Below are positions 5,184 through 27,301 of a stretch of 64,000 bases of DNA, piece after piece. This DNA comes from a virus (taxonomy: Duplodnaviria; Caudoviricetes). Location: positions 43,985 to 107,984 of IMG/VR virus record IMGVR_UViG_2928716645_000002; one strand, given 5' to 3'. Every line of letters begins with the position of its first letter. Position 1 is the first letter of the stretch. Both the position numbers and the translations under genes were made by a program. The notes under the pieces are model-generated. The model did no database searches. It worked only from the letters and a program-made list of their open reading frames with translations, and was not told where the DNA came from.

Positions 5184-5205
5184 CGGCGCCTCGCGCTACC
5201 AGATC

Positions 5206-5676: not shown

Positions 5677-5699
5677 GCTGATCTCTCATTTCTGGGCGA

Positions 5700-5744: not shown

Positions 5745-5839
5745 GGCTGTTTTTGGGTCAAAAGTCGCTGTTTTTGGCTTGTTTTCGGGCGTTCTCGGCC
5801 GGCTCCCGCGAACGAAAGCCGGCCGAGTTGAGCGCTGAA

Positions 5840-6283
5840 TTACGACACCGCCTGAACGACCGGCGCGTTGTTGGCGCCATCCAGGATGGCCATAGCGGCA
5901 AAAGCCGCGGCGCCAGCGTTGTTCGCCGGCGTGACAGTCAAGCGCGTGTAGCGCTTGCTGCCCCGATAGCCGAGCTTGCGGACCTGTCCGTCGCTATCGA
6001 ACTTGAAACCGGCGGCCGTCAGCGGAGCGACGCCGACAGTCTCGCTGATCATGTCGCCATCGGCGACGGTGTTCGCGCCCGACATATCGGCATTGTTGCT
6101 CTCCTCGAGCAGAACGGCGAACGTCGCGTCGGCGTCGGCGACCGCGCCGATCTGGATGGCGTACGTCAGCCGGGTGAAGCCCTGGATGTCGATGATCGAA
6201 CCGACCTGGGCGGTGTTGTCGGCAACCGAGACGGCCGCGAGGACCGCCTTCAACTGCATTCCATTGGCGCTATCGCGGCGCAT
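5840..6283 (-). CDS. Putative capsid decoration / cement protein
   Basis: 147 aa, beta-rich, YRGSKRYTRL motif, directly after the capsid gene. Confidence 0.6.
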   Translation of the reverse strand: MRRDSANGMQLKAVLAAVSVADNTAQVGSIIDIQGFTRLTYAIQIGAVADADATFAVLLEESNNADMSGANTVADGDMISETVGVAPLTAAGFKFDSDGQVRKLGYRGSKRYTRLTVTPANNAGAAAFAAMAILDGANNAPVVQAVS

Positions 6284-6384
6284 GTGCGTTTCCTTTCGGA
6301 ATATGGGTGAAAATGCGGGGGAAGACTCTCGCGGCCCGCACCGAAGCGCGGACCGCCTGGCCCTTGGCGGACCGTCGGTCTCGG

Positions 6385-7803: not shown

Positions 7804-7843
7804 GACGTTCTCCTGATCTGTGATGTGGTGGTGATGGGTGTCG

Positions 7844-8842: not shown

Positions 8843-8857
8843 GGGGGATCCAGTTCG

Positions 8858-10168: not shown

Positions 10169-10398
10169 TAGCGAGCACCAAACGTTGCGACCGCAACGAA
10201 GATCGCGCCAGGTACGGTATAGGCGAGCGGCGGGTAGACCTGATACAGGCCGTATCCGAGCAACGCGGTTCCGCCGAACAACATGGCGTCGCGCAGATCG
10301 AACGGCGCGACGATCGCGGCGCCTGCAGCGAGCAGACCGCGTCCAACGGCTCGAGCGGCCCTCGCCGGCGCCGTAACTATTCGCTGCCAGCGTGACAT
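10168..10398 (-). CDS. Small membrane protein between terL and portal
   Basis: 76 aa, hydrophobic; its stop overlaps the portal start. Confidence 0.65.
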   Translation of the reverse strand: MSRWQRIVTAPARAARAVGRGLLAAGAAIVAPFDLRDAMLFGGTALLGYGLYQVYPPLAYTVPGAIFVAVATFGAR

Positions 10399-10416
10399 TC
10401 GGCCCTGCCTGTATGC

Positions 10417-12102
10417 TTAGAGCACCAGGAGACCGCGGCGCTTGAGCACCGATGCGCCTGTTGCTTCAGGGTTGGTTGCCATGAACCAAGCAGAATCGAA
10501 CATCGCCATGACCGGATCGATCTTGGCGTCGCCGGCGGTCTGCTTCGTGGCGCGGATCGCGGTCGCGGTCGGCTCAATCTTCAGATTGGCGACGCACCAG
10601 TCCATCATTGCGCTCGGCGCGTGGCGGAGCGTTCCGCTCGCCAGCTTCCGCTCGCAGGTTTTGATGGCATTCATCATGCCGAAGCCCTGCGGCGCTCCGA
10701 AGAGAAGCTTGGCGTCGACCGTGACGCCGATCTCGTCGAGGGCGTCGGTGAACTCGCCGAGCCCCGCGGGGTCGACGGCAACGCCGCCGAGCAGTCCGCG
10801 ATCCTTCACCAGCTTGATGATGCGGACAATCCTCGACACGTCGTCGAGCTCGTCGTCGACGATCGTCAGATCTCCGGCATTCTCGAAGTCAGTGAGCCGC
10901 GGAGCGATTGCCGGCCTGCGATCGAGGACACCTCGGTGGCACCAAGCGTGAGACCAAAGCAGCCAATGTCGCGTAACCGCGTGCCTGCCCAGCAAACTCA
11001 GGCCGAAGAGGTCGTCGAGACCGCCGCCGTCCACGCCTGGCACGATCACGTCACAGACGCGAAACAGCGAGCGGAACGTGATCGCTTTGTCAGATCGGCG
11101 GGTCCAATATTCCGCCCCCGGCCAGCGATTGGCCCGGAGGTTCATTCCGATCTCGATGTTGAGATGCTTGGCGAGGAAGGTTCGAAGCGCGTCCTCGTTG
11201 CCGCGCTGGGCTTTGGTCAGTTCGCTCAGCAGCCATTCGGTGCTGACGGACAGTTCGAGGTTCGGGTTTGTGATCCGCCAGTTCGCTGGATCGAGGTAGG
11301 ACTTGGCCTTGATCATGAACTCCGGGAATTCGTAGAGCATCCCGAAGCTGGTCGGATCCACGATTTTGCCGTCGCGCACGTCGCGGAAGTAGTCGAGCTT
11401 CTCCTTGAACACGCCGGCCGGCGGCGCGTCAGACTGCGTCGAGAGATAAACGACGAAGCCTTCTTTCCTCGAGACCAGACCACCGGTCGCCTCCTGGAAC
11501 ATCGCCGCGGCGTTGGCGCGCTTGCCGAAGATCCAGAGCTCGTCGACGAGGACGAAGGCGGCCTTCTTGCCGCCGACGACGTCGGTATCGGCGGCGACAA
11601 CCTTCAGGACCGCGTCCGTCGTCAGGTGTGTGATCTGACGGTAGTTGTCCTGGACGTGCAGCAGATCCCGCAGTTTCGGATGCAGCCTGACCATGGCTGC
11701 CGCCGGCGTGAACGAGTTGTTGGCGATCTCGATCGTCGGCGCCAGGATCAGCAGTTCCGCGCCGTGACGCCAGTTCCTGACCAAGGCCGTGACCATGATG
11801 CCGGCGGCGATCGTCGACTTGGTGTTCTTCTTGCTGATCAGCAGGAAGAACTCACGGATGAGCCGTTTGGCCTGCTCGTGGTCGTAGGCGCCAAAGATCG
11901 TCCGGACGAAGTCAAAGACCCAGGGCTCGCAGACCTCGCCGAACGTTGGTTGCCGCGGCAGGTCGTAGATCTGCAGCGACTTGAACACCTCGAGCGCGGC
12001 ATCCGCCTCGCTCGGGAAGAGCGGGTCGAAGGGGACGAGCGTGTCTCCCGCCACGACGCGCCTTTCCCAGTCGGGACAGGCGGTGGACCAGACCGGCGTC
12101 AT
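10417..12102 (-). CDS. terL: Terminase large subunit
   Basis: WSTACPDWE start, ISKKNTKST Walker A variant, VLVDELW Walker B, GVDGGGLDDL and KIDPVMA nuclease motifs. Confidence 0.95.
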   Translation of the reverse strand: MTPVWSTACPDWERRVVAGDTLVPFDPLFPSEADAALEVFKSLQIYDLPRQPTFGEVCEPWVFDFVRTIFGAYDHEQAKRLIREFFLLISKKNTKSTIAAGIMVTALVRNWRHGAELLILAPTIEIANNSFTPAAAMVRLHPKLRDLLHVQDNYRQITHLTTDAVLKVVAADTDVVGGKKAAFVLVDELWIFGKRANAAAMFQEATGGLVSRKEGFVVYLSTQSDAPPAGVFKEKLDYFRDVRDGKIVDPTSFGMLYEFPEFMIKAKSYLDPANWRITNPNLELSVSTEWLLSELTKAQRGNEDALRTFLAKHLNIEIGMNLRANRWPGAEYWTRRSDKAITFRSLFRVCDVIVPGVDGGGLDDLFGLSLLGRHAVTRHWLLWSHAWCHRGVLDRRPAIAPRLTDFENAGDLTIVDDELDDVSRIVRIIKLVKDRGLLGGVAVDPAGLGEFTDALDEIGVTVDAKLLFGAPQGFGMMNAIKTCERKLASGTLRHAPSAMMDWCVANLKIEPTATAIRATKQTAGDAKIDPVMAMFDSAWFMATNPEATGASVLKRRGLLVL

Positions 12103-12304
12103 TGCGATCGCGACGACCGGTGCCGCCGGCGAAACTCTTTGTACCGGCCAGTTACGAGGGGCTCGGCGCGCCGCTTGCCACACCTGCTGGCGATGCCGAC
12201 GGCCCGGTCAAGACGGCAATGTGGTAGGCGCCGCATGATCGCCATCGTGACGATGCGCGTCCCCGGGCGCTCGTGGTACGATCCCCGCCCGAGCGGCATG
12301 GCGA

Positions 12305-12766
12305 TTACTCGTTGACCGCAGTGTTGTCGACGACCAGGCCAATCTTCGGCGGCTCCGGCGGCTGGAAGGCGCCTGACGCCGCGACGAGCTCAGCGGCCGC
12401 CTTGCGCTCGGCCTTTTTCCCAACCTTCTCGGGCTTCGGCGGCTGCAGCGGCGCCGGCGCCTGGCTGCCGGCACGCGCGAGATCGGACATCGCCTGCGCG
12501 GCCGCGGCCACGCGCGTCATCTCCTCAAGCTTTTTGATGCAGGTCGCGTTGCCTTTCTTGGCCTGCGTGTAGAGCATACCGACGACCTCGGCCCGCTTCT
12601 TGGCGACACCGGTCGCGATCTCCTCCCGGAACGACTTCACCAGCGTCGGGGTCGATATCCCGAGCGCTCGAGCGCAGTCGTCCTGGGACATCCCGCACGA
12701 GATCCACTGCTCAACCTTCGTGCGCTGCGTTTTTGTCGGCTTGAACGCCGGCCGCCCTCGGCCCAT
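12305..12766 (-). CDS. terS: Terminase small subunit
   Basis: GRPAFKPT plus an HTH (ARALGISTPTLVKSF) and a C-terminal GKKAERK..FQPPEPPK. Confidence 0.85.
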   Translation of the reverse strand: MGRGRPAFKPTKTQRTKVEQWISCGMSQDDCARALGISTPTLVKSFREEIATGVAKKRAEVVGMLYTQAKKGNATCIKKLEEMTRVAAAAQAMSDLARAGSQAPAPLQPPKPEKVGKKAERKAAAELVAASGAFQPPEPPKIGLVVDNTAVNE

Positions 12767-12821
12767 GCCGAAACTCCAATTTCTTTGCCAGTTTTGGCGT
12801 TCCGGCCGAATTTTCTGGCTG

Positions 12822-12900
12822 GCCAAAAAAAATTGCGGGAATGAGACCCCGTGCGGTAGGGGGTCCCGTCGGTTCCTAGACTTTCCGACCCCATACCCCC
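12822..12900. other. Putative cos / packaging-site region
   Basis: Non-coding, directly upstream of terS. Minus strand reads GGGGGTATGGGGTCGGAAAGTC...ACCGC...TTTTTTTT, resembling cos-proximal sequence of HK97-like phages. The exact cut site is unknown. Confidence 0.5.
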
Positions 12901-13519
12901 TTGGCCTCGAGCCGGTAGCGGCCATGGTGCATGCCGGCGCGTCGGTTGCGGGCTGGCGTCGGATTGGCTGGCGTTCAGCCTGGCCGAATAGTGTCAGCCC
13001 CTGCAGGCTATGTGCTGGCGCCGCGCCGCGCGCGGCAACCGCCCGCGCTCCAGTCTCGACTAGCTCGGTTGTGTGGTTGTGTCCTGTTGACGTGGCGGGC
13101 GCGCGCCGATCCGTCGGGCTATGCCGCACCGTGCGGCGCGCTGTCGCTTGGCAGTCCATCCCATGCGTCGGCGGCGCTGATGCAGCGCTCAACCCGGATG
13201 ACCGGCAACACGATGATGACTGCAGGTTGGCGCCGTTGTCGGCGGGCGCGGCGCGGTGCGGCGGGCTGTAGCTCGACTACCTCGCCCATGCCGCGCCCCT
13301 GACATGCGAAACCCGCCGAGGCGGTGCGGCCTGGCGGGCTTTGGATTGCAGCGACAATGCGTCACCGTGCTTGCTCTGAATCGGAAATTGAGTCGGCTGT
13401 CAAATCGCTGTTGCCCGGGTTGTCGGTGGATGATGGCGCCGACGGTGCGCCATGCCTCTCAATTCCGTGGTACTTGCCGGGCTAGATGACTGCGGCATAA
13501 CTCAATCTTGAGGCGTCCA

Positions 13520-13831
13520 ATGATCGATACAAAGGCGAGTAAGGCAACAGCCAAGCGCAAGCCAGCGAGCCGGGCATTTGCATCCGCTGACACGTCACTG
13601 AGAATCAGCGCGGCCGAATTCCGGACCTGGCAGGAAGGCGCCGGGCTGTCGAATGCCGCAGCTGCCCGGCTGCTCTACGTGGCGGAAAACACGTTGGCAC
13701 AATACCGCGCCAACGGCGCCGGTCCTGATATCGCCCGACAAATCTGGGCGATCATTGCAGGGATAAGGCCGGACACTGGGCGCCAACGCGCCGAGCTACT
13801 GGGCCGGATCAATGCGGCCCTAGACGGCTAA
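13520..13831 (+). CDS. Small XRE-type HTH regulator (Aca-like) at the left edge of the island
   Basis: ISAAEFRTWQEGAGLSNAAAARLLYVAENTLAQY. Confidence 0.7.
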   Translation: MIDTKASKATAKRKPASRAFASADTSLRISAAEFRTWQEGAGLSNAAAARLLYVAENTLAQYRANGAGPDIARQIWAIIAGIRPDTGRQRAELLGRINAALDG

Positions 13832-13897
13832 CGCCTCAATATTGCGATACCGACCCGGGCCAGCACAAACTTTTTTCGCAATTTTGCGTTTTGCCAG

Positions 13898-13931
13898 TTG
13901 ACGGCCGCGCGAATATCTGCGCATGTGCGCA
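13898..13931 (+). promoter_or_regulatory. Putative sigma70 promoter with a palindrome over the -10 region
   Basis: TTGACG at 13898, upstream T-tracts, and TGCGCA-TG-TGCGCA at 13918-13931. The -10 element is weak. Confidence 0.5.
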
Positions 13932-13973
13932 TCACCACGGCGCGATTGTGCGCAACTTCAAAGGCCCGGCGAA

Positions 13974-14138
13974 ATGATCCCCTTCATTTCCTTTTGCATC
14001 GCTAACCCGGCTTTCACTCTGGCCATGCTCGCAGCGATCTATACCGCTTGCTGGGCCGCCCTTGCCCCCTTCCTTTACGCGCCCGCCAAGTCTCGGCGCC
14101 TTTCGATCCGGCGCCGTGCGCGCCGCGACCGCCGCTAG
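13974..14138 (+). CDS. Small hydrophobic protein with a basic tail
   Basis: ATG follows motif A and an SD; one TM-like segment and an RRRARRDRR tail. Confidence 0.55.
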   Translation: MIPFISFCIANPAFTLAMLAAIYTACWAALAPFLYAPAKSRRLSIRRRARRDRR

Positions 14139-14149
14139 GAGCTAGGCAC

Positions 14150-14368
14150 ATGCGAACGAAGCAAACATTGAAAACCGGAACGCGCATTGAATTGCATGGC
14201 ACGCCAGCAATCGGCGCCTTTCCCGCGGTCGCTCCGGAGAGCGCGACAATCGCGCAATGGACTGCGGCAAGCGGTCCGCTCATGCCGGGTTGGCATATCG
14301 TCAAGTTTTCCGATGGCGGAAGGCTTTGCATCCACGAAAACCGATTCCGGGTTATCGACAACCGCTAA
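14150..14368 (+). CDS. Hypothetical protein (72 aa)
   Basis: AGGAG SD; MRTKQTLKTG... Confidence 0.65.
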   Translation: MRTKQTLKTGTRIELHGTPAIGAFPAVAPESATIAQWTAASGPLMPGWHIVKFSDGGRLCIHENRFRVIDNR

Positions 14369-14412
14369 CCCGTTCCACCGCGCAACTGTGCGCAACTGAA
14401 AAGGCCAAGCCC

Positions 14413-14493
14413 ATGGAAGATTTTCTAGACTTCACCCTGTTTTGCATCGCGGCGGTTGCCGGGACGTTCATCATCTTCGCTTGCTGTCTCTGA
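14413..14493 (+). CDS. 26-aa hydrophobic micropeptide
   Basis: Motif A and AAAAGG precede MEDFLDFTLFCIAAVAGTFIIFACCL. Confidence 0.5.
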   Translation: MEDFLDFTLFCIAAVAGTFIIFACCL

Positions 14494-14583
14494 CGATTTG
14501 CAGCCTATGCCGTGCGCGTCACGGCATAACCGGCAAACCGCCGACCCGCGCAATAGTGCGCAACTCAAAAGGAAGTAACTGAA

Positions 14584-15462
14584 ATGACTGTCTACACCGC
14601 AACCGCCCGTTTCGATGGTACCGCCCGCGCGCTCACCGAGAACGAATTGCGCAAGTTGGCGCCGTCGGTCTTCGCGGTCGACGCGCACCATTCGCGTTCG
14701 GAGCGTTTCCAGCCTATCCCGACTTTCGACGTGCTGCGCGCGCTGATGGCGGAGGGCTTCCAGCCCGTCGGCGCGAAACAGAGCGTTGCCCGGCTCGATG
14801 ATCGCCGCGATTTCACAAAGCATCTGATCCGGCTCCGCCGTCTCGACAACGCCACGGCGTACACCGTCGGTGATACCGTCTGCGAAATCCTCCTCAAGAA
14901 TGCGAACGACGGAACGTCCGCCTATGACTTGATCGCAGGCCTTTTCCGTGTCCGTTGCCTCAATAGCCTTGTGGCACAGGTCGGCACGGTCGAGTCCGTC
15001 AAGGTCCGCCATACCGGCTCCGCGCAGGATGTTTCGCACAAGGTGATTGAAGGCACCTATCGCGTGCTGGGCGAGGCTCAGAAGGCGCTGGCGGCGCCGC
15101 AGGACTGGGCGCGCCTGGCCCTCAACACCGACGAAAAGCAGGTGCTGGCGGAAGCCGCGCACGTTCTGCGGTTCGGTGACGCGGAAGGCGAAACCAGCAC
15201 GCCGATTCAGCCCGCGCAGTTGCTGCAGCCGCGTCGCCGCGACGACGTCGCCGCCGATCTGTGGACCACGTTCAATGTGGTTCAGGAAAACGTCATTCGT
15301 GGCGGGCTGACGGCGCGCGGCCGCGACGCCAATGGCCGGCGGCGCCGCGTCACCACCCGCGCCGTTAACGGGATCGATCAAGACGTGAAACTGAACCGCG
15401 CCCTGTTCACCCTCGCCGCCAAGATGGCGGAGCTCAAGGGCGCCGCCCCGCTCGCCGCCTAA
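14584..15462 (+). CDS. DUF932/DUF945-family protein
   Basis: APSVFA..HHSRSERF, KHLIRLR, NANDGTSAY and DLWTTFNVVQEN motifs. Confidence 0.92.
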   Translation: MTVYTATARFDGTARALTENELRKLAPSVFAVDAHHSRSERFQPIPTFDVLRALMAEGFQPVGAKQSVARLDDRRDFTKHLIRLRRLDNATAYTVGDTVCEILLKNANDGTSAYDLIAGLFRVRCLNSLVAQVGTVESVKVRHTGSAQDVSHKVIEGTYRVLGEAQKALAAPQDWARLALNTDEKQVLAEAAHVLRFGDAEGETSTPIQPAQLLQPRRRDDVAADLWTTFNVVQENVIRGGLTARGRDANGRRRRVTTRAVNGIDQDVKLNRALFTLAAKMAELKGAAPLAA

Positions 15463-15555
15463 GCGATTGCAGCCCATGCCCGGGCTTGTCCCGGGCATGA
15501 TCGGCAACCGCCGGCAACCGCGCAATTGTGCGCAACTCGAAAAGGGAAAACTGCC

Positions 15556-15660
15556 ATGAAGTATCGCCGCCACGAAACCGACCGCAAGCCCTGTGACAAG
15601 CGGACTCGCCGCGACGCGGTCCGCAACGGGAAGCGTGCTTACCTGAATTCCTGCCTGTGA
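15556..15660 (+). CDS. 34-aa basic micropeptide (absent from the ORF track)
   Basis: Motif A and AAAAGGG precede MKYRRHETDRKPCDKRTRRDAVRNGKRAYLNSCL. Confidence 0.5.
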   Translation: MKYRRHETDRKPCDKRTRRDAVRNGKRAYLNSCL

Positions 15661-15765
15661 GTACCGCTTCACTTTTGCGGCTTGTCCGCCTCTCATTCTT
15701 CGTCCGCGACGCTAGCGTGGTTATCAGCGTCGCAAGCATTCTCCTCATTCCCTAGGGAAACACCG

Positions 15766-16218
15766 ATGGAACTGAATAACCCTCATCTGCCGCGCAAAGG
15801 TGCCCGCGTCATGAACGGCACCGATGATCGCGATTTGGGAGTCGTCATTGACGTCCGCGACAATCCCAACGGACCGGTACAGGTGAAATGGGACGGCGGA
15901 GAAACGGGTTGGCACGGCGCCGATGGTATCTATTTGGCGCGGCCGAACTCGTTTCTTTTCAACTGTTGCGCGGGCGACATCGCGCCCGATTGGTCGCAGT
16001 TCAAATCCCTGGAAATCGGCGGGTGCGTCACCGAGACGGAAGAGAATGGCGACACGTTCACCATCGGCGGGAAGCCCGATAGTGAAGCCGAATTCTGGAC
16101 GGTTTACGCCCGCCACCATTCTGGCGAGGCGGAAGCGATCACGGATTGCAAAACCCGCGATGCGGCGGAATGCGCCGCCTCGCAACTGCGCGACCTTTCC
16201 CACCTTCCCATGACTTGA
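15766..16218 (+). CDS. Hypothetical protein
   Basis: AGGG SD; MELNNPHL... Confidence 0.7.
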   Translation: MELNNPHLPRKGARVMNGTDDRDLGVVIDVRDNPNGPVQVKWDGGETGWHGADGIYLARPNSFLFNCCAGDIAPDWSQFKSLEIGGCVTETEENGDTFTIGGKPDSEAEFWTVYARHHSGEAEAITDCKTRDAAECAASQLRDLSHLPMT

Positions 16219-16309
16219 CGTTGCGACACTGCGCAGTGCCTGGCGCTGCGCAGCACGGAACGCCAAAGCGGACCAACGCGCGATTGTGCGCAACGAAAAG
16301 GACTCGGAC

Positions 16310-16513
16310 ATGCGAGGGATTTGGACTCTCTACGTTGACCAATACGGCAACCATTGGGGTGCCAGCACGGTGGCAGAGCTGCGCGCCAAGATCGGCCGCG
16401 GCAGGGTCGCCAAGATGTATCGCGACAAGCCGCACGGCGGCGCCGTCCATTGCGGCTACATCGTTGGGCCGTATTGGTGCACGGCCTATCGGCCGGTTGA
16501 ACTGGCCGCCTAG
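16310..16513 (+). CDS. Hypothetical protein (67 aa)
   Basis: Preceded by motif A and an SD; ends in LAA. Confidence 0.75.
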   Translation: MRGIWTLYVDQYGNHWGASTVAELRAKIGRGRVAKMYRDKPHGGAVHCGYIVGPYWCTAYRPVELAA

Positions 16514-16575
16514 CGGCGCCGTTTCGAGACTTCACCCCGCGCGATTGTGCGCAACTGAAAGAGGAGCAATTCAAC

Positions 16576-17139
16576 ATGGCTTGGCAGTTCTATGACTTTT
16601 TCGACCATCCGACCATCGAAGGGCCGTTGCCCGAAAAGCGCTGGATCAAGCACGCCAGCGACAAGCGACACAAGGTCCGCCACAGCTCGAAAGTCACCCG
16701 CTCCACCGGCGGCGTATCCGCCAATGACCTGAACGAACGGCACACGCTCGAATATGCCCGCTGGCTGGCCCAGCGCGACGGGATCACTATCCCGCCCGGC
16801 TCCGAATATATCGTTCAGCGGGCTGACGTGAACGTCCCGGGCAGCAAGCCTCAATCCCGAATCCGCGCGGTCGAATTCGGCAAGCGGCGGACCACGCAAA
16901 GCGGCTACGGTCGCAGCGCCTGCACTAGGCACCATTGGGACGTCGCCGCCCGGATCGAAATTCCGAACTGGGATTGGCAACCCGCCGAACCGGTTGAGGA
17001 GATCATCCCGGAAGCGGTCCCGGTCCCGGTTGCGCCTTCCTTCAAGATCCCGGCGCGGATCCTGCGCACGTCTTGCCTTGTGCCCGTTCTGGCGCGTGTC
17101 CCGGTTGCGCCTTCCTGCGCAATCCGGCTTGCGGCTTGA
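16576..17139 (+). CDS. Hypothetical protein
   Basis: Preceded by motif A and GAGGAG; ends in LAA. Confidence 0.75.
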   Translation: MAWQFYDFFDHPTIEGPLPEKRWIKHASDKRHKVRHSSKVTRSTGGVSANDLNERHTLEYARWLAQRDGITIPPGSEYIVQRADVNVPGSKPQSRIRAVEFGKRRTTQSGYGRSACTRHHWDVAARIEIPNWDWQPAEPVEEIIPEAVPVPVAPSFKIPARILRTSCLVPVLARVPVAPSCAIRLAA

Positions 17140-17510
17140 TGGTGGCGCCGATGAAACGCCAGCAAGCTCCGACGTTCAGTCAGTTGTGCGACGCGCTGCA
17201 GTCGCGCCCCGCTCCGTGCTCGCAAGCCGAGTGGCGCGAGGCCTCAACCGCCATGCGCCTGGCCCGCCGCCATCCCGGCCGCGTCGGCAGGACCATCTAT
17301 ATCGAGTGCGGGACGTTCGCGCGGCGCGTTTACCTTGAAGCGACCTGGGGCGGGATGAATTGCTACAACGGCCCGCACCCGTTCGGTTATGTCAACATGA
17401 TCGCGCATCACCGATTCATGTTCCAGCAGGGACTGCGGGAAGGCCGCGTTGCGGAGGCAAGACAATTTGCGGAGGCCTCGCGCCTCCGCGGTCCGGTGCC
17501 GCTGCCATGA
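17139..17510 (+). CDS. Hypothetical protein
   Basis: TGATG coupling to the upstream gene. Confidence 0.6.
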   Translation: MVAPMKRQQAPTFSQLCDALQSRPAPCSQAEWREASTAMRLARRHPGRVGRTIYIECGTFARRVYLEATWGGMNCYNGPHPFGYVNMIAHHRFMFQQGLREGRVAEARQFAEASRLRGPVPLP

Positions 17511-17614
17511 CGCGGAAGCCTCAACCCCGCAAACAGCGCTGCCCGTACTGCAGGCAGCTGCGGCCCTTCTACATGATCGCAGCGCACATCACCCAATGCG
17601 AGGCCCTACGGTAG
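17507..17614 (+). CDS. 35-aa C2HC zinc-finger micropeptide
   Basis: ATGA coupling; CPYC-x11-H-x3-C. Confidence 0.5.
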   Translation: MTRKPQPRKQRCPYCRQLRPFYMIAAHITQCEALR

Positions 17615-17713
17615 GGTCTCGGCTACGGCCGATTTCCGCAGTGGATGACGTTCACCCCCGGCGGCGGCTGATTCCTAATTCGCGCGATAGTGCGCAAAGC
17701 GAAAGGATGACAC

Positions 17714-17911
17714 ATGCGAACAATCAAACCCGCGACGCCCGATAACGCAATTTGCCTCGGGAACGCGATAGAGGCGATGAAAAAGGCACGCCACTGGATG
17801 CGCGCGGCCGAATGCCCGAAGGCGCTCGAAGCGCTGCAGGAAGCGCTAAAAAGCGCGGAAGGTGCAAAGCGCCACATGCAACACCGGCTGAACCGCACCG
17901 CGGCCCGCTGA
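17714..17911 (+). CDS. Hypothetical helical protein (65 aa)
   Basis: Preceded by motif A and AAAGGA. Confidence 0.7.
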   Translation: MRTIKPATPDNAICLGNAIEAMKKARHWMRAAECPKALEALQEALKSAEGAKRHMQHRLNRTAAR

Positions 17912-17957
17912 ATTCTTCCCCCTCGGCTACGGCTAATTTTGAAAGGAGATCACCTCA

Positions 17958-18860
17958 ATGAGCACAATCACGATTTGGACTTGCACCACCGAAGGCGACA
18001 ACTGCGGGACCGAAACGACGGTCCATGCCACGGAAGCCGCGGCGGTGGATTATGTGCGCGGGAGCCTGCGCGATATCCTCAAGCGGAACCCCGAGCGCCT
18101 GGCCGCGATCGAGGCCGCGACCGCAGAGAATATCGCGGAGCTCTGGGAAGACTCCGTTGACGGCCCCTGCATCATCGAAGAGCAGGCCGTTGCGTTGCCG
18201 CCGTTCGCGGTTGCAATCTATGAAACTCGGCACGGCGACGAAACGCGACTCTACCCCAACAGCGACGCGGCGCGCGCCTGGCGCAGCGAGATCGCCGCCG
18301 AGAACTGGGCGGCACGAATGGACGAGGACAAACCAGCCGATCCGGACGAGGTAGCCGAAGCCTATTTTGAGCGCGTCGGAGAGATGCGCGGCGATTTCTT
18401 CCGGCTCGAGGAATTGGAGATTGTCGGCGGCACAGTCCCGGTTGCGCCTGCGCAGGATTGGCGCCAGATCGCGCGCGACCTGGCCGCCGCGCTCGACTCC
18501 TGCACCCATCAGATTGGCCAGATGCGCGGCATGTTCAGCGACGAGGACGGCACAATTTCGGGAGCAGTTTCCGACGCCGAAGACGCAGCCGCAGCCTACC
18601 GCCGGGCGGCCGCCGGCCTCCCGCCTGCGCCCGCGCCACAATTCATCGGACAGGATGACCGCGCTTGCGCGGAAGGCTGGGGGCTGTTCGAGAACAGCGA
18701 CACCGGCAAACTGGAAATTCAGGCCGACGCCGAGTCCTCAATCTTTGTTTGCGACGGCGTGAGCCACGACGACGAAGCCGAGGTCTTCGTAAAGACTCAG
18801 GCAGCCGCGGGCAGCGAGTACCACGCCTTGGCGCTGCTGCGCGTCGGTACCGCGCAATAG
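17958..18860 (+). CDS. Acidic hypothetical protein (300 aa)
   Basis: AAAGGAG SD; visibly D/E-rich. Confidence 0.8.
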   Translation: MSTITIWTCTTEGDNCGTETTVHATEAAAVDYVRGSLRDILKRNPERLAAIEAATAENIAELWEDSVDGPCIIEEQAVALPPFAVAIYETRHGDETRLYPNSDAARAWRSEIAAENWAARMDEDKPADPDEVAEAYFERVGEMRGDFFRLEELEIVGGTVPVAPAQDWRQIARDLAAALDSCTHQIGQMRGMFSDEDGTISGAVSDAEDAAAAYRRAAAGLPPAPAPQFIGQDDRACAEGWGLFENSDTGKLEIQADAESSIFVCDGVSHDDEAEVFVKTQAAAGSEYHALALLRVGTAQ

Positions 18861-18916
18861 TCCCGGCTACGATCGATTTTGCACCCCCGAGCTACGGCCG
18901 ATTTTGCAAACACCGC

Positions 18917-18946
18917 TTGACAGATTCGGCCGACGCAAATTAGAGA
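18917..18946 (+). promoter_or_regulatory. Putative sigma70 promoter
   Basis: TTGACA-18 bp-TAGAGA, between a motif B pair and motif A. Confidence 0.6.
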
Positions 18947-18987
18947 ACCAGCCCTGCGCGATTGTGCGCAAATTGAAAGGACGAGAA

Positions 18988-21135
18988 ATGCAGCATTCCG
19001 CCACCTATTCGCCCGACGATAACAAGCTGCGCCTTTATCCGGCGCACCGCCTCGACGCCGAGGATTACGCGCGCGTGAAGGCCGCCGGCTTCAAGTGGGC
19101 GCCGCGTCAAGAACTGTTCGTCAAACCGACCTGGAGCCCCGGCGCCGAAGACTTGCTGATTGAGATGTGCGGCGAAATCGGCGACGAAGACACCACGCTG
19201 ACCGACCGCGCCGAGCAGCGCGCGGACCGCTTCGAGGAGTACAGCGACAAGCGGCTTTCGGAAGCCAACCGCGCGCGCGAGGCCGTGGACCAGATCGCGG
19301 AGCGGTTTGCGATGGGGCAGCCGATCTTGGTCGGCCATCACTCGGAGAAGAGCGCGCGGCGCGACAAGGAGAAGATGGACGCCGGCATGCGCAAGGCGCT
19401 GAAGCTCTGGGACACCTCGAATTATTGGACTGCGCGCGCGGCCGGCGCAATCGCTCACGCCAAATACAAGGAACTGCCGGCGGTGCGTCATCGCCGCATC
19501 AAGACAATTGAGTCCGACAAGCGGAAGTTGGAACGGCTGCAGGCGGACACTGAACGCCAGCTGAAGGCCTGGCAGATCGTCGCCGACATCACCGACCCGG
19601 AGAAGCAGCGCGCGGCCGGCTTGGCCGTGGCCAACGCGGGCGGCTTTTGGTCGATGTCGTTTCCGCTGGCGGATTATCCGCGCGACCCGCCGGCCTCGCA
19701 GTATGAGGGACCGATGGGGCTTTGGTCGGCGATTGACGGGAACGTCATCACCGCCGCGCAGGCTGCCGCTATCGCGATTCCGAGCCTGGAGCGGTCCGGG
19801 CCTTCGCGAGCCCGTTGGTTGGCCCACTATGACAACCGGCTGGCCTACGAACGCGCGATGCTGGCCGAACAGATCGGCGCCGAGGCCACCGCTAACCCGC
19901 TGGCCGACCGCTTCGCCTTCGCCGTCGGCGGTCAGATTCAGACGCGCCGCGGCGACGAGTGGCTTACGATTGTGAAGGTCAGCAGGGGCGCTAACGGTTC
20001 GGTTTCCAGCATTCAAACCGCGGCCCCCTCAGGATCGCGCGGGCGCGGTGTTTACTGGAAGGTCGAAAGCGTCCGCGACTATCGCGCGCCGACCGCCGAG
20101 AACGTCGCCACGGCGAAGGCAGCCACCAAGCTGCCGCCGCTCTGCAACTATCCCGGCGAGGGATTCCGCGAAATGACGGAGGCCGAATGGAAGGGCCGCC
20201 GGCAGTGGTCGGATTTCTCCTATGTGCGCGGCATTGAGGCAACCGAGACCGCACAGAAGCACCGCGCGCGATTCATGCCGGTACCGGGCAAGATGTGGGA
20301 GCGCCAGCAAGTTTTCATTACGGATGCAAAGCGCGTCGATCCGCCCAGGATCGCGCCGGCAGCCGAGCCGCAGGCGCCCGCGGAATTTGTCGCCGAATAT
20401 GTAGCGCCGCCGGTCGCCGATCTTGACGCCACGCTGGAAGTGGTCGGCGAGATCATGGCGGAGCCGTCGCCGGTTGAGACGGTGCCGGAGGTCGTCCCGG
20501 TTGCGCCCGCGGAGGCGTCGCGCCATCTCCCGGATACGGCCGATTTGCCGGCGCCCTCTTCGGCCGACACGTTCGAGGCCATGCGGGCAATGCTGAAAGG
20601 CGGCGGCGTGCAAGTCGTCGTCGCGCCGCAGTTGTTCCCGACATCGCACGCACTGGCGGGCGACGTCGCAGAGCTCGCCGACATCCGAGACGGGCACCGT
20701 GTGCTTGAGCCTAGCGCCGGCACTGGCGTGTTGATCGAGGCGGCGCGCCGCAATGTCGACGGCTACATCGATATTGTCGCGGTCGAGATCAACCCGACGC
20801 TTGCGCGCGGCCTGGCCGGTCGGTTTCCCGGCGTCAAGGTCATCAACGCCGACTTCCTCGAGGTGGACAGCTCCGAGATGGTCGGGAAGTTCGACCGCAT
20901 CCTGATGAATTCGCCATTCGAACGCGGCGCAGACATCAGACATATCGAGCACGCGCGCACGTTTCTGCGGCCTGGTGGCCGGCTCGTCGCGATCTGCGCG
21001 GACGGTCCACGCCAGCGCGCGAAGTTCGAACCGATCGCGACGGAGTATCGCGCCCTGCCCGCCGGGTCCTTCAAGGCCGCCGGCACAATGGTCAACACGG
21101 CGCTCGTCGTCATCGACGGGCCGCCGCCGGGGTAA
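18988..21135 (+). CDS. DUF3560-domain protein fused to an amino-DNA methyltransferase
   Basis: ATYSPDDNKLRLY and GQPILVGHHSE; C-terminal LFPT, VLEPSAGTG and ILMNSPF. Confidence 0.9.
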   Translation: MQHSATYSPDDNKLRLYPAHRLDAEDYARVKAAGFKWAPRQELFVKPTWSPGAEDLLIEMCGEIGDEDTTLTDRAEQRADRFEEYSDKRLSEANRAREAVDQIAERFAMGQPILVGHHSEKSARRDKEKMDAGMRKALKLWDTSNYWTARAAGAIAHAKYKELPAVRHRRIKTIESDKRKLERLQADTERQLKAWQIVADITDPEKQRAAGLAVANAGGFWSMSFPLADYPRDPPASQYEGPMGLWSAIDGNVITAAQAAAIAIPSLERSGPSRARWLAHYDNRLAYERAMLAEQIGAEATANPLADRFAFAVGGQIQTRRGDEWLTIVKVSRGANGSVSSIQTAAPSGSRGRGVYWKVESVRDYRAPTAENVATAKAATKLPPLCNYPGEGFREMTEAEWKGRRQWSDFSYVRGIEATETAQKHRARFMPVPGKMWERQQVFITDAKRVDPPRIAPAAEPQAPAEFVAEYVAPPVADLDATLEVVGEIMAEPSPVETVPEVVPVAPAEASRHLPDTADLPAPSSADTFEAMRAMLKGGGVQVVVAPQLFPTSHALAGDVAELADIRDGHRVLEPSAGTGVLIEAARRNVDGYIDIVAVEINPTLARGLAGRFPGVKVINADFLEVDSSEMVGKFDRILMNSPFERGADIRHIEHARTFLRPGGRLVAICADGPRQRAKFEPIATEYRALPAGSFKAAGTMVNTALVVIDGPPPG

Positions 21136-21212
21136 TTCCGGCCGCCCTCCCGCTTACGACCGATTTCCCATCCTCCCCTCGGCTACGGCCGATTCCGAAA
21201 GGAGCTTGATTC

Positions 21213-21770
21213 ATGTCCGACCGCTTTACCTCTGAGGAAATGCACCTGCTGAAGCAACTTCAGAACGGCCCGCAGCGCGACCGCGACCGCATACCTGAAC
21301 GTGTTCTCGTCAATAGCGGGATGGCCCGGCGTGCCGATTCTGGGATGATCGAGATCACAAACGCCGGCCGCGCATGGATGGATTTGCCTGACGTCGGCGA
21401 GGAACTCGGCCGCGCTCGCGCCAGCATCCATAGTTTCGACCGCTTCAAGGCAGGCGATCCGGCGCGCAGCATTTTCCGAAAGATGGGCCTTCTGGAGTAT
21501 CTCGATGCGGCGCAGAGCTGGGGGCAGTTGCGGGCGCTCATCGTGCGATTCAACGACCCCGACAAGGGTCACTTCGTGAAGCGAGCCAAGCAATGCGACG
21601 GCGTCTGCAGTTCGGGCGAGCGCGTCTTACTGCATGCCATCCTCTACGTGACCGACTTCGCCTGGCTGGCCGACAAGCTGGGTGGCAAAGAGGTATGGCA
21701 GAACATGAACCGTGCCGGCGGTGAACACCGTGCGGCGGTTGCGGCCTGCATCGGCGCTGAGGTGTACTGA
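21213..21770 (+). CDS. Hypothetical protein
   Basis: AAAGGAG SD; 185 aa. Confidence 0.75.
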   Translation: MSDRFTSEEMHLLKQLQNGPQRDRDRIPERVLVNSGMARRADSGMIEITNAGRAWMDLPDVGEELGRARASIHSFDRFKAGDPARSIFRKMGLLEYLDAAQSWGQLRALIVRFNDPDKGHFVKRAKQCDGVCSSGERVLLHAILYVTDFAWLADKLGGKEVWQNMNRAGGEHRAAVAACIGAEVY

Positions 21771-21771
21771 C

Positions 21772-22050
21772 ATGGCAAGCGCGCAACTGCTAATCGCCGC
21801 CGGCTTCAGGGTCACCACGCGCGCCGAGTTCGACGCCGCCACCGACGTGCCCGCCGGGATGCGCCTGGTGGCCACGCGCATCTTCAAGCGATGGGGCGGC
21901 GACTTCGTGGTGTACGACCCGGCCGGCGGCGATGACGGCTGGCTACTGATCGATTATGATCGCGACCAGATCATCGGCGAGACGATCGAGCACCTCGGGC
22001 GGCTCGCACCGCCCGAGCCGCCGGCGCCGGCACAAGGTTCGCTGTTCTGA
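21772..22050 (+). CDS. Hypothetical protein ending in QGSLF
   Basis: ATG immediately follows the upstream stop. Confidence 0.65.
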   Translation: MASAQLLIAAGFRVTTRAEFDAATDVPAGMRLVATRIFKRWGGDFVVYDPAGGDDGWLLIDYDRDQIIGETIEHLGRLAPPEPPAPAQGSLF

Positions 22051-22094
22051 TACCGGATACGATCGATTTTGAAACTGGAAAGGAGAGAACGCAG

Positions 22095-22544
22095 ATGCAG
22101 CATAGCAACGTGATTAACCGCCTTCTCGGTACCGGCACACTCACATGGGCAAGCGCCGAACGCCGGAGCGACCGTTACGGAACGGTTTATCTGATACCGC
22201 ATCGCCATAACTCCCTCACGCGCAATCCCTCTGTGTCGCTCATCGACGTTGAGGCGGCTCGCGCGTTTGAGGGACGCCGGGGAGACCTGGTCGCGGTTGT
22301 GAAAGAGACACGGGAAAGCACTCACATCGGAGACCTGTTCCGCGGCGTCTCTCCCCGTACGCCGGAGGTCGGCCAAATCATCGCGCTCGGTTCGGGAACG
22401 CTGATTATTGAGCCCGCACCAGAGGGCGGCGTGATGGTCGGCCTTCGACCCGACGACGGTCGCGATAGCGATTGGTTGCGCATCCGGGCGCTCTACGACG
22501 CGCATGAACAGACCGTCGACCTGCACTTCCATCCGACGAAGTGA
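22095..22544 (+). CDS. Hypothetical protein
   Basis: AAAGGAG SD; 149 aa. Confidence 0.75.
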   Translation: MQHSNVINRLLGTGTLTWASAERRSDRYGTVYLIPHRHNSLTRNPSVSLIDVEAARAFEGRRGDLVAVVKETRESTHIGDLFRGVSPRTPEVGQIIALGSGTLIIEPAPEGGVMVGLRPDDGRDSDWLRIRALYDAHEQTVDLHFHPTK

Positions 22545-22554
22545 GGCCGCGGTC

Positions 22555-22929
22555 ATGTCGAGAACCGTCCGCCGCGTGCCCGCCGACTGGCAGCATCCTC
22601 GCAACTCCTCCGGCCGCTACATCCCGCTGGCTTATGCCCTCCCGGATGCGCCCACGCCCTACCCGGCCGCCAGCTATATGCCGGCATGGCCGACCGCGGA
22701 GCGGACGCATTGGCAGTTGTACGAGACCACCAGCGCCGGCACGCCGGTTTCGCCGCCCTGCCCATCGCCCGAGGCTTTGGCCAAATGGCTGGCCGACCAC
22801 CACACGGAGGCCGCGCCGGGATTCACGGGAACTGAGGCGCAATGGCTCGGCGCAATCAAGCGCGGCGGCGTCATCCCGCCGGTGATGTCCGTCGGCAAGC
22901 GCCTGGTCAATCCGCTCGACTACACCTGA
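22555..22929 (+). CDS. Hypothetical phage protein
   Basis: RRVPADWQHP and WQLYETTSAGTPVSP. Confidence 0.75.
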   Translation: MSRTVRRVPADWQHPRNSSGRYIPLAYALPDAPTPYPAASYMPAWPTAERTHWQLYETTSAGTPVSPPCPSPEALAKWLADHHTEAAPGFTGTEAQWLGAIKRGGVIPPVMSVGKRLVNPLDYT

Positions 22930-23022
22930 TCGGCCGGGACTCCCGGCTACGATCGATTTTGTGCTACCCCCTCGGCTACGGCCGATTCCGGGCGACTGTG
23001 CCCAACCGGAAAGGATCCTGAG

Positions 23023-23346
23023 ATGTCACCACCACGATTTGTCCACCGCAAGATCTCGAGCGACGATTTCAAGGCCGAACTGGCCAAGCAGGGCATGTCG
23101 GTGTCGGCGTTCGCGCGGGTCTGGTGCCAGAACCTCTCGACCGTCAGGAAGTGGGCGAACGGCGGGAACGATATCCCGACCTGGGTGCCGATCGCGCTGA
23201 CCATGATGACGCTGCCGAATGCCCACGGGACCGCACGCATGGCGGCCGCGGCGATGATCCAGCAGGACCGGCTGCATCCCGAGCTCGGTGAATTTCCCTA
23301 TCAGAAACTGCGGCAGATGCCGGCGGACGACGAGATCGAGGAATAG
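23023..23346 (+). CDS. Small XRE-type HTH regulator (Aca-like) at the right edge of the island
   Basis: SSDDFKAELAKQGMSVSAFAR..STVRKWANG..IPTWV; preceded by a motif B pair and motif A. Confidence 0.8.
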   Translation: MSPPRFVHRKISSDDFKAELAKQGMSVSAFARVWCQNLSTVRKWANGGNDIPTWVPIALTMMTLPNAHGTARMAAAAMIQQDRLHPELGEFPYQKLRQMPADDEIEE

Positions 23347-23352
23347 CCCCGG

Positions 23353-23568
23353 CTACGATCGATTTTGCGCGCTGCGCCTTTTCTTCGCCGCGCTCCGCTT
23401 CTTCGCCGGTGATCGCTTGGCGGCTGGCATCGGCGTCGACTCCTTTGCCGCTGCGGCAGCCGCAGCGTCCCGAGCATCGAGCTCCCGCTTCTGCGCCTGC
23501 ATCCGCTCGAACCTGGCTTCGCGCTGAGCCCGCAGCGCGTCGGCGCGCGGTGATGGTTCGCGTCCCAT
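23353..23568 (-). CDS. Small basic hypothetical protein
   Basis: TAATG coupling; MGREPSPRADALRAQRE. Confidence 0.55.
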   Translation of the reverse strand: MGREPSPRADALRAQREARFERMQAQKRELDARDAAAAAAAKESTPMPAAKRSPAKKRSAAKKRRSAQNRS

Positions 23569-23843
23569 TAAGCTGGGTCCTCCCATCGGACCGGCGCTTC
23601 GCCGACCTCGAGCATAACCGGCGGGTGCGTGCGCGAGATAATCCGAAGATGCACCGCCGCCCCTGCATTGAGCCGTGCCAGCTCTTCCGCCGTCGGTTTC
23701 CATGCCGACGTTAGCGATGGCAGCGAGTCGTTCAGCACCTCAGCGCGGATCGGGAGATCGAAACATTCACCGTTTCGCTCCTCGTTCCAGTCTTTCGGAG
23801 CGGCCAACACCATGTTGGAGCCGGAGATCTTGGCAATTTCCAT
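23568..23843 (-). CDS. Hypothetical phage protein
   Basis: GGAG SD; APKDW..C..LP and SAWKPTAEELARLNAG. Confidence 0.75.
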   Translation of the reverse strand: MEIAKISGSNMVLAAPKDWNEERNGECFDLPIRAEVLNDSLPSLTSAWKPTAEELARLNAGAAVHLRIISRTHPPVMLEVGEAPVRWEDPA

Positions 23844-23852
23844 TGTGCTCTC

Positions 23853-24197
23853 CTACGATCTCATGCGGTTTGCTCGAGCTTGAATGCCGGCCCGGGTGTT
23901 GTGGCTGTTGCAGGCGCAGCGGCCATTAGCCAGGTCGCGGGCCAGATCCGGGCGATCTCTGACGTCTTGGATGTGATCGGCGTACATCTGGTCGCCACGC
24001 GCCTTGCTGCGCTCGCAGCGGACACCATTCTCAACGTGCTCGCAGCGCCAGCCGGCGCGCTGTTTTACCTTCAACGCCCACTGCTGGTGCTCGACGGTCT
24101 GATAATGCGGGTCCGCCCGCTTCTCCGGAGGCTTCACCTTCCTGGTGTCCAGCGTCGGGACGCGCGGGCTGAGAGACGGAATTCGCGATCGCCTCAT
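23853..24197 (-). CDS. Packaging-type HNH endonuclease
   Basis: VKQRAGWRCE and YADHI..DLANGRCACNSHN. Confidence 0.85.
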   Translation of the reverse strand: MRRSRIPSLSPRVPTLDTRKVKPPEKRADPHYQTVEHQQWALKVKQRAGWRCEHVENGVRCERSKARGDQMYADHIQDVRDRPDLARDLANGRCACNSHNTRAGIQARANRMRS

Positions 24198-25920: not shown

Positions 25921-27084
25921 TCACCGCAGCTCCAGCTTGTCGGCCACGGCACGCAGCAGCGGGACCTTGACACCGAGCAGGCGCGCCGCATCCCGGTACA
26001 GGGTGTGGCCCTCGAACGTGGCGTTGATCACAGCCCTGGTGAACAGCGAGCCGTTACGCGAACGAAGGGTGACGTAGAAGTCGCCGCCGCCTTCATCGCC
26101 GCCGCTGTCCCGCTGCCGAAAGCGGGCAAACTCGCGTCGATACATCTCGTCGATTTCGCGTTGGTCGACGTCGAGCAGATCGGATGCCCGCCGCAGCAGC
26201 ACCAGCGAACTCACCCGATAGCGCCGCACCAGATGGCCGATGTTGGCCTCGATGCTGACCTTGTAATTCCAGTGACGACGCAAGCTTTCCGCCGGCACGA
26301 GCACCTCGGCCGCGACGGCGTTACAGAACTGCTCGGTCCTGGCCTCTTGCCGCTGGCTCTGCGCCAGCTCGACGTTCGATATCCCGGTGGTGCCGATCCA
26401 CAGGTGTGCTATCTCGTGCGCGAGCGTGAATATCTGTGCGGCTTTCGCGTCTCGGCCGTTGATGAATACGAGCGGCGCCACCTTGTCCGCGATGGCGAAG
26501 CCACGGAATTCGTCGACGGACAGCGCGCGGTGAGTGTTGTTGCCCACTATCCCGCTGCGCATTACCATGATGCCCGCCGCCTCGGCCTGGCGGATGAATA
26601 GGCGTAGGAAATCCTCCCAGCTGCTCGCCTCCGCCCGCATGGCCTCATCGATCTTGAGCACCTCGACGATACTGCGCGCTACCTCGTTCGAGTCGCTCCT
26701 GATCGTGAAGGCGCCCACGAAGCCCAGCGGCTCGGCGCCCTCTTGCTGCCGGTAGTCCCGGTACCATTCATGCTTCCGGATGATGTCGTTGACCAGGTCG
26801 TTGAAGTCGACGCTAGGCCGCCGCAACTCGGCATTGCCCACGGTCCGCAGATCCGGCAACGCGAACTCGTCCGCCGGCGGACTCTGCAGAAACAGGTAGC
26901 CGAACGGAATTCGCAGGACGTTCGCTAGGGTCTGCGCCTGCTTGAATGTTGGCTTGGCCTCGCCGCTCTCCCATGCATCGAGGCGGTCCGGCTTCACGCC
27001 GAGCCTTCCCGCCACGTCCTCCGGCGCGAGCTTCGATCGCTCGCGCGCCCAGCGCAGAACTTCCGGTGTGATGAGCGCTTCCAT
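25921..27084 (-). CDS. XRE-HTH fused to an ImmA/IrrE metallopeptidase
   Basis: N-terminal HTH, FTLAHEIAH (HExxH) and EQFCNAVAAEVL. Confidence 0.93.
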   Translation of the reverse strand: MEALITPEVLRWARERSKLAPEDVAGRLGVKPDRLDAWESGEAKPTFKQAQTLANVLRIPFGYLFLQSPPADEFALPDLRTVGNAELRRPSVDFNDLVNDIIRKHEWYRDYRQQEGAEPLGFVGAFTIRSDSNEVARSIVEVLKIDEAMRAEASSWEDFLRLFIRQAEAAGIMVMRSGIVGNNTHRALSVDEFRGFAIADKVAPLVFINGRDAKAAQIFTLAHEIAHLWIGTTGISNVELAQSQRQEARTEQFCNAVAAEVLVPAESLRRHWNYKVSIEANIGHLVRRYRVSSLVLLRRASDLLDVDQREIDEMYRREFARFRQRDSGGDEGGGDFYVTLRSRNGSLFTRAVINATFEGHTLYRDAARLLGVKVPLLRAVADKLELR

Positions 27085-27180
27085 TGCAGTTGGTTAACTG
27101 TTCCCGGGCCGGCCTGCCACCCCGCGGCCGCGCCAACCGTCGCACGAATTCGTTAACGGCTCAACGTCCCGCCGGGCACG

Positions 27181-27205
27181 AAAAAGCCCGAGCCAGGCCC
27201 GGGCT
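27181..27205 (-). terminator. Intrinsic terminator downstream of dnaB
   Basis: AGCCCGGGC-CTG-GCTCGGGCT-TTTT on the minus strand. Confidence 0.7.
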
Positions 27206-27301
27206 GCATTGCGCGCCCTTGCGGGATCGGGCCGCTGGCCCTGCTCCACACGATGCGGACCACGGCCTGCTATGGTCGGACGGGGGTGACTTAATTATAA
27301 G

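Follow-up and report, generated by a model that had tools for sequence, protein, structure and literature searches.

Why should a 10-kb block of genes lie, on the opposite strand, between the terS gene of a temperate phage and the HNH endonuclease gene that usually adjoins it? The arrangement occurs in a provirus record of IMG/VR (IMGVR_UViG_2928716645_000002; 107,984 bp), the last 64 kb of which (positions 43,985 to 107,984) constitute the 64,000-nucleotide window analyzed here. Coordinates refer to this window, or to the whole record where they carry the prefix G000. The block, referred to below as the island, is situated beside the predicted cohesive-end site (cos) of the phage, and its gene content and position suggest a lineage-conserved cos-side cargo operon whose most likely role would be establishment and anti-restriction, under its own control. 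We put the probability of this reading at roughly 0.5.

The strand switch is real: the plus-strand island stands between two long minus-strand operons, a late operon that opens with terS and a replication operon whose last named gene is that of the HNH endonuclease. Genes were called by a codon-usage caller trained on long open reading frames (ORFs), combined with PHROG scans (Table 1). A first-pass annotation of the window had counted about 20 plus-strand genes here; the strand is correct and the count becomes 18. Its start for terS, position 12766, is the Met at which the phrog_12540 and phrog_309 matches begin, and the distance from terS to the HNH gene, which it had put at about 11 kb, is 11.4 kb, the HNH gene being recognized by phrog_589, phrog_144 and its motif. 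The GC content is 64%. The relatives used for comparison were eight IMG/VR proviruses (80-132 kb), four named Bradyrhizobium genomes (overlapping with the proviruses) and the contig G001. As the prophage relatives sit in the chromosomes of four named Bradyrhizobium strains, the host is taken to be Bradyrhizobium. We take the phage to be a ~108-kb temperate HK97-type cos siphophage integrated in that host.

The interval of ~750 bp from terS to the first island gene is non-coding and contains the most conserved non-coding block in our alignment A2. From its start, 60 bp upstream of terS, this block reads A8 tract, 12 bp, the sequence GACCCCGTGCGGT and a further stretch up to ATACCCC; its core, GACCCC-NN-GCGGT, lies 80 bp upstream of terS. 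The pattern A7-8, ~10 nt, CCCC-NN-GCGGT is kept in every relative despite three terminase types, whose identities to the TerL encoded here are 83-93%, 56-58% and 46%. G001, a metagenome contig of 104,614 bp, is linear according to IMG/VR and 100% complete according to CheckV. Its TerL gene is 600 bp from one end and its island starts at the other. The last bases of G001 (…AAAAAACCTCCGCATGAC) and its first bases (GTAGAAGC…) align with the sequence on either side of the core, of which ~8-10 nt are missing, and no repeat is common to both ends. Virion DNA with a 3′ cohesive end, once end-polished in library preparation, should give ends without the overhang letters, and the ends of G001 appear as expected for such DNA. 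In HK97 the TerS site occupies bp 15-29 from the cut, A-tract included, and the overhangs are 10-nt 3′ extensions (PMC11331095). In the window the A-tract is found on the terS side of the predicted cut, 15-22 bp away, a geometry that seems to match the HK97 site. On these grounds cos very probably lies at ~12847-12856, where the first-pass annotation had expected it (near 12.85 kb). An exact-pattern scan of viral and metagenome contigs for further contigs ending at cos returned known proviruses only, or nothing; a profile search with the helix-turn-helix (HTH) gene found two metagenome contigs of 1 kb, and the start of one of them, ~35 nt from the core, lends weak support. The TerL match in G001 (L056/L027; G001:C1 102340-104016) has one in-frame TAA, attributable to a frameshift, two ORFs or a sequencing error. 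The conserved blocks of the leader that separates cos from the island include GTTGACGTGGCGG at 13087. The leader also shows a ~170-bp indel in two relatives (A2), and its GC hairpin at 13311-13342 is thermodynamically unremarkable (z = -0.4).

A synteny comparison, which the first-pass annotation had suggested, was run and finds the island in the same slot in the eight proviruses, the four named Bradyrhizobium genomes and G001. The order terL-terS, island, HNH is common to the eight proviruses and the four named genomes, with interiors that vary. In all relatives the island is on the plus strand, opens with a homologue of HTH-like gene 1 and closes with a homologue of HTH-like gene 2. The former has no Pfam, PHROG or NCBIfam match, and the latter has weak matches only, to the BcepMu gp16 family and phrog_8898. 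The strongly basic peptide of 34 amino acids (aa) is constant though the surrounding genes vary, and DUF932 is present in only four of the examined relatives (L008, L015, L026 and L034). The GC content and codon usage of the island match those of the rest of the phage. A recent mobile insertion was considered and rejected: the record is without an integrase (no PF00589 match anywhere in it), and at least 12 relatives keep the slot. On this comparison the island, which at least 10 Bradyrhizobium prophages as well as G001 carry at one and the same place, is a fixed slot beside the predicted cos, not a recent insertion.

The named cargo is of a kind found on plasmids. The DUF932 protein and the DUF3560-methyltransferase are 45-50% identical to products of conjugative-plasmid genes; the methyltransferase matches >5000 plasmid records, 84% of them conjugative. 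The DUF932 protein of the window is 46% identical to the DUF932 protein encoded beside ssb on the Denitratisoma plasmid pI, in a run of genes that reads cytosine methyltransferase, ssb, DUF932, two small genes, DUF3560, kleA and radC. On Paraburkholderia pOLGA2 the DUF3560-methyltransferase gene is downstream of a zincin-like metallopeptidase gene. Six relatives add a ~200-aa protein with an ArdC-N anti-restriction domain (25-27 bits; Pfam cut-off 22.6). The first-pass annotation had called DUF932/945 and DUF3560-methyltransferase genes typical of plasmid leading regions, and the plasmid matches support a plasmid-type character for those present; of its family labels, DUF932 and DUF3560-methyltransferase stand (Pfam E-values of 4e-34 and 2e-33) and DUF945 was not detected. 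Plasmid leading regions are enriched in orphan methyltransferases and anti-restriction genes (Samuel et al. 2024, PMC11541004). The island methyltransferase is itself an orphan, with no nuclease partner seen nearby. Family scans of the island proteins gave no match to SSB, PsiB, ArdA or KlcA. In unrelated viral contigs with a DUF3560-methyltransferase, examined for the placement of its gene relative to the terminase, neither the TerL_ATPase nor the Terminase_6N family was matched. Two unnamed island proteins are strongly acidic, which only hints at DNA mimicry. For the larger, of 300 aa, an ESM Atlas search gave nothing above noise, and the AlphaFold single-sequence model was unusable (predicted local distance difference test, pLDDT, of 43). 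The replication operon encodes two more DNA methyltransferases, at 30988-33621 (phrog_116/32684) and 37203-37823 (phrog_359), so that the phage has at least three.

The island appears to possess its own regulatory signals. Two short motifs of 16-21 nt recur in it, motif A ahead of Shine-Dalgarno sequences and motif B at gene junctions of the right half, and in the whole 108 kb both are confined to the island and to the plus strand. Motif A has 92 copies in 11 islands; its core is invariant, its stem shows no covariation, and no conserved element lies upstream of it. The motifs fold no better than shuffled sequence, and an Rfam scan of 12.2-25.4 kb gave no match. Stable covarying RNA hairpins were rejected as an explanation, given invariant stems, motif B variants without a common fold and z-scores of -1.1 to +2.1. 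We read both motifs as probable sequence-specific protein sites, on DNA or RNA, and not as simple hairpins. No copy of either is found near the CI-like repressor gene (41-42 kb region). The late operon and the island are divergent, with cos between them, and the replication operon meets the island head-on at ~23.4 kb; the island must therefore have a promoter of its own. The best candidate would be TTGAC[GA]-N17-GCATGT, which occurs at the same place in L005, L006, L007 and L057; a scan for sigma-70 and terminator consensus sequences was not usefully above shuffles and missed this element (13896-13924). For late transcription, the first-pass annotation had offered two routes, antisense passage through the island or a restart near terS. 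The second is the simplest, because the packaging, head, tail and lysis genes are all downstream of terS and the HNH gene ends the replication operon; the late operon would most simply start in the cos-terS region.

Motif positions coincide in part with the borders of homology among relatives. Sixteen of 36 homology breakpoints fall within 15 nt of a motif (raw P ~1e-8), an enrichment that is marginal when restricted to intergenic DNA (P ~0.05). One copy of motif B (20528-20548) falls within the methyltransferase gene, where its DUF3560 and methyltransferase domains meet, and homology with four relatives breaks exactly there. In G001, L019 and L021 the methyltransferase match comes in two separate pieces at 20528 (two ORFs in G001). 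This split suggests domain swapping.

On the reading we favor, the virion chromosome would run from terS to HNH and then through the island, which would fill its last 10 kb at the end opposite terS. Both this location and the inward direction of transcription agree with the first-pass annotation. The island would start ~650 bp inside the virion end and be read inward from one or more promoters of its own, independently of the late and replication operons. Between the two HTH genes that frame it, the array would be composed of small exchangeable cassettes, with a short conserved motif and a strong ribosome-binding site at the head of each. Its place beside cos would make the island some of the earliest DNA to enter the cell, provided that ejection begins with the end packaged last. 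Such an order is the standard view, on which the first-pass annotation had relied. The sequence comparisons establish the anatomy, its conservation among relatives, the in-silico position of cos and the plasmid homology, while the timing of island expression, its order of entry and its anti-defence activity are inferred. A fuller version of the same idea makes the island a true phage leading region: the last-packaged end would enter first with self-regulated establishment and anti-defence cassettes drawn from the gene pool of plasmid leading regions, motifs A and B would be both expression signals and cassette junctions, and entry-order counter-defence would have arisen convergently. This version we consider doubtful.

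Several observations weigh against an establishment and anti-restriction role. Scans against Pfam, PHROG and NCBIfam left 16 of the 18 island proteins without an assignable function, no known anti-defence protein was found encoded in the window itself, and the ArdC-N matches in relatives are only those of 25-27 bits and come without the protease domain. The cos call depends on a single linear contig, G001, and on conservation. A 2023 single-molecule study of lambda ejection in vitro found either end first at ~50% probability, contradicting for lambda the rule on which the first-pass annotation had drawn (PMC10287942). Moreover, cos genomes become circular shortly after entering the cell, so that position gives less of an advantage, and a prophage-expressed role in lysogenic conversion fits the same anatomy.

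This last point leads to the explanation that ranks second, after an establishment and anti-restriction operon. Accessory-gene hotspots (morons) occur in temperate phages, as does regulatory-cassette shuffling in T4-type phages. The island might be such an ordinary hotspot, tolerated between the ends of two essential operons. Most of its expression would then come from the prophage, for lysogenic conversion or superinfection exclusion, and its closeness to cos would be irrelevant to entry order. Like those loci it keeps its anchors while its interior varies, with regulatory motifs repeated where cassettes meet, and the same locus carries differing content among relatives. Small membrane peptides are present, the one-strand repeated sites could be stoperator-like silencers or lysogen promoters, and an IS1595-family transposase is encoded in the island of G001, which also has a gene for a protein with a peptide-chain-release-factor (PCRF) domain (the two at L017 11375-12370 and 15505-16299). 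Unlike typical morons, however, the island is right at the predicted cos and faces inward; the spacing between slot and cos stays constant through three terminase types, and also in the relative with its HNH gene elsewhere, and the named cargo (orphan methyltransferase, ArdC-N, DUF932) is of establishment type, not of the typical conversion type. We regard a plain hotspot as possible, on balance unlikely.

The position of the HNH gene bears on a further alternative, in which cos lies elsewhere. The TerL is 50-57% identical to those of cos phages of the Burkholderia and Pseudomonas groups, the best match in an isolated phage being that of Burkholderia phiBt-TXDOH (57%). In this closest isolated phage the HNH gene directly abuts terS and cos, so that the separation seen in the window does depart from the usual layout. 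The cut might have followed the HNH gene to ~23.4 kb, or packaging might be headful, in which case the island would occupy the first-packaged end or no defined end. The first-pass annotation had itself named a terminus near 23.4 kb as evidence that would overturn its proposal; in silico, the junction at 23346-23568 has only a copy of motif B and no block that co-varies with terminase type, whereas the conserved A-tract and core stand beside terS and the G001 ends map there. TerL belongs to phrog_9, HK97 type, a cos family. In G001 a 43% homologue of HNH is immediately downstream of TerL, yet the island still begins at the contig end. A cos away from terS is in our estimation very improbable. 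HNH is 68-87% identical among relatives (terS is 84-85% identical in three of them), and among the prophages HNH identity does not track TerL identity. Since HNH also lies beside terL in G001, we take HNH to be the movable part and the island to be fixed beside cos; the first-pass statement that the island splits HNH from terS is right as to the separation and better read in these terms. The HNH translation shows a DH...N...CxC-N-x-H-N motif and Cys pairs, with the Pfam HNH model below threshold for the 23853-24197 protein. Searches against isolated phages, by tblastn with HNH and by megablast with 10-26 kb, gave no match.

Weakest of all, and hardly credible, is a recently captured plasmid or integrative and conjugative element module, or a separate mobile element inserted in the phage, for which the 45-50% identity of two proteins to conjugative-plasmid products speaks, and against which stand plasmid homologues for only 2 of the 18 genes (among the plasmids examined), family scans of the island proteins without transposase, relaxase, integrase or conjugation genes, the absence of PF00589 noted above, phage-like GC content and codon usage, and at least 12 relatives with the same place, anchors and motifs.

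How does a cos-side establishment and anti-restriction operon compare with known systems? The closest precedent, and a direct one, for an early unit read inward from a right cos end is found in the cluster A mycobacteriophages L5 and D29, in which Pleft is at the extreme right cos end, with a ~500-bp non-coding leader, oriented stoperators and deletions arising there (PMC5712189, PMC6550527). As here, these are cos genomes whose right-end genes are read inward, with a leader of several hundred bp from the end to the first gene, many copies of a short asymmetric intergenic site in a single orientation (here eight of motif A and ~11 of motif B, all on the plus strand) and rearrangements at the sites. 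The leader in the window also recalls the abundant right-end non-coding RNA of L5. In contrast, Pleft of L5 serves the whole right arm including the replication genes, whereas the island holds only 10 kb of cargo; and the sites of L5 are repressor-bound and genome-wide, whereas motifs A and B are restricted to the island, keep a constant spacing to the Shine-Dalgarno sequence and are absent from the CI-like region.

The concept of counter-defence or takeover genes at the first-entering end, expressed before the rest, is shared with T7 and T5/BF23. T7 gene 0.3 (ocr) places counter-defence in the first-entering early region. T5/BF23 have pre-early genes in the first-step-transfer DNA (PMC10644984). 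All of these are virulent, have terminal repeats and enter in stages or through transcription, unlike the present temperate cos siphophage, which gives no sign of staged entry. Plasmid leading regions likewise present an array of small genes, all in one orientation, at the end that presumably enters first, and they share cargo (orphan methyltransferase and DUF932, with ArdC-type genes in relatives of the phage). They differ in oriT, relaxase and single-stranded entry: phage DNA enters double-stranded, the family scans show no relaxase, and a Frpo-type single-strand promoter was not found in the island by Rfam scan or fold tests. The packaging module of HK97 (gp74; PMC3592412, PMC11331095) shares with the window the PHROG of its TerL, the small size of its HNH protein (~114 aa), an HNH motif of the zinc-finger kind and, beside the cut (the predicted cut, in the window), a TerS-type site with an A-tract; there HNH adjoins cos and terS, unlike here, where it is 11.4 kb from terS and in the other operon. 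Leading-end early or anti-defence genes (T7, T5), right-end early operons (L5) and accessory hotspots are thus already known. The novelty lies in what is combined here, namely a slot fixed beside cos in temperate phages of HK97 type, cassettes with slot-specific motifs, plasmid-leading-region cargo and a displaced HNH.

Other features of the phage lie apart from the island. ARAGORN finds 33 minus-strand tRNA genes within 12 kb (G000 3500-16000, outside the window; L053), interleaved with a gene for a Ro60-like RNA-binding protein (G000 7138-8475, phrog_850); the array also holds two Pfam HNH genes (G000 ~12037-12186 and 13711-13842). A Ku-like DNA-end-binding protein is encoded at G000 20684-21529 (L054 684-1529; phrog_4873, 2e-49). 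In the plus-strand early block, far from the true packaging genes, a 574-aa protein (window 59850-61574) has a terminase-large-subunit-like N-terminal ATPase match (phrog_2666, 4e-16).

Table 1. Coordinates of the island, the predicted cos and neighboring features (window positions unless prefixed G000)
Feature	Coordinates	Strand	Basis and remarks
Late operon	terS -> TerL -> portal -> head and tail genes, on past window edge	-	gene caller and PHROG
Late operon, continuation beyond window	tail fibre, endolysin (G000 26516-27322), 33-tRNA array	-	gene caller and PHROG
Portal	8858-10168	-	
TerL, HK97 type	10417-12183	-	phrog_9, 4e-113
terS, first late-operon gene, 153-aa ORF	12305-12766	-	phrog_12540, 2e-24; phrog_309 (terS), 8e-7; match begins at Met 12766
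A8 tract, candidate TerS recognition element	12825-12832		invariant in all relatives
Predicted cos	12840-12900; core GACCCCGTGCGGT 12845-12857		CCCC/GGGG symmetry around core; conserved right-hand block ending ATACCCC
Leader between cos and island	12901-13519 (~620 bp)		no coding signal; conserved blocks in A2
Plus-strand island	13520-23346	+	18 genes by codon-usage caller
HTH-like gene 1, left anchor	13520-13831	+	all relatives, 35-93% identity (A1); HTH from sequence pattern only
Promoter-like TTGACG-N17-GCATGT	13896-13924	+	just before first motif A
Motif A (GCGC-R-A-YW-GTGCGCAA)	eight copies, 13940-18971	+	each 4-8 nt before AAAGG Shine-Dalgarno
Three small ORFs	13974-14138, 14150-14368, 14413-14493	+	read downstream of motif A/Shine-Dalgarno; two hydrophobic; no family matches
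DUF932 protein	14584-15462	+	Pfam PF06067, 4e-34; phrog_12094, 8e-102
34-aa strongly basic peptide	15556-15660	+	motif A upstream; 74-79% identity in every relative
Five small cargo genes	15766-16218 (acidic), 16301-16513, 16576-17139, 17139-17510, 17714-17911	+	patchy in relatives; no informative family matches
Motif B (CYCGGMTACGRYCGATT)	~11 copies, 17617-23364	+	gene junctions, right half of island
Acidic 300-aa protein, isoelectric point 4.3	17958-18860	+	gene caller and translation
DUF3560 + class-I amino-methyltransferase	18904/18988-21135	+	Pfam, 2e-33; motif I EPSAGTG, motif IV NSPF
Four genes	21213-21770, 21772-22050, 22095-22544, 22576-22929	+	second and fourth in nearly all relatives; no family matches
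HTH-like gene 2, right anchor	23023-23346	+	68-95% identity in all relatives including G001
Small gene at convergent junction, beyond HNH	23568-23843	-	phrog_34105, 3e-6; present in L007, L015, L047
HNH endonuclease, 114 aa, last named gene of replication operon	23853-24197	-	phrog_589, 3e-8; phrog_144, 3e-6
Replication operon	~44 kb down to 23.6 kb	-	DnaD-like initiator, methyltransferases, resolvases, sliding clamp, primase, DnaB helicase, HTH-peptidase regulator
CI-like repressor	41277-42038		
Recombination block	starts 44 kb	+	

The lineage shows that an HK97-type HNH gene need not adjoin cos, and the predicted cos core is easily testable. If the island is expressed first and protects the incoming DNA, it would link the leading regions of plasmids with the early regions of T7 and T5, and entry order would shape gene placement in temperate cos phages as well. 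The ~40 uncharacterised cassette families across a dozen Bradyrhizobium prophages would then be candidates for anti-defence functions, in an agriculturally important symbiont for which few phages have been characterised.

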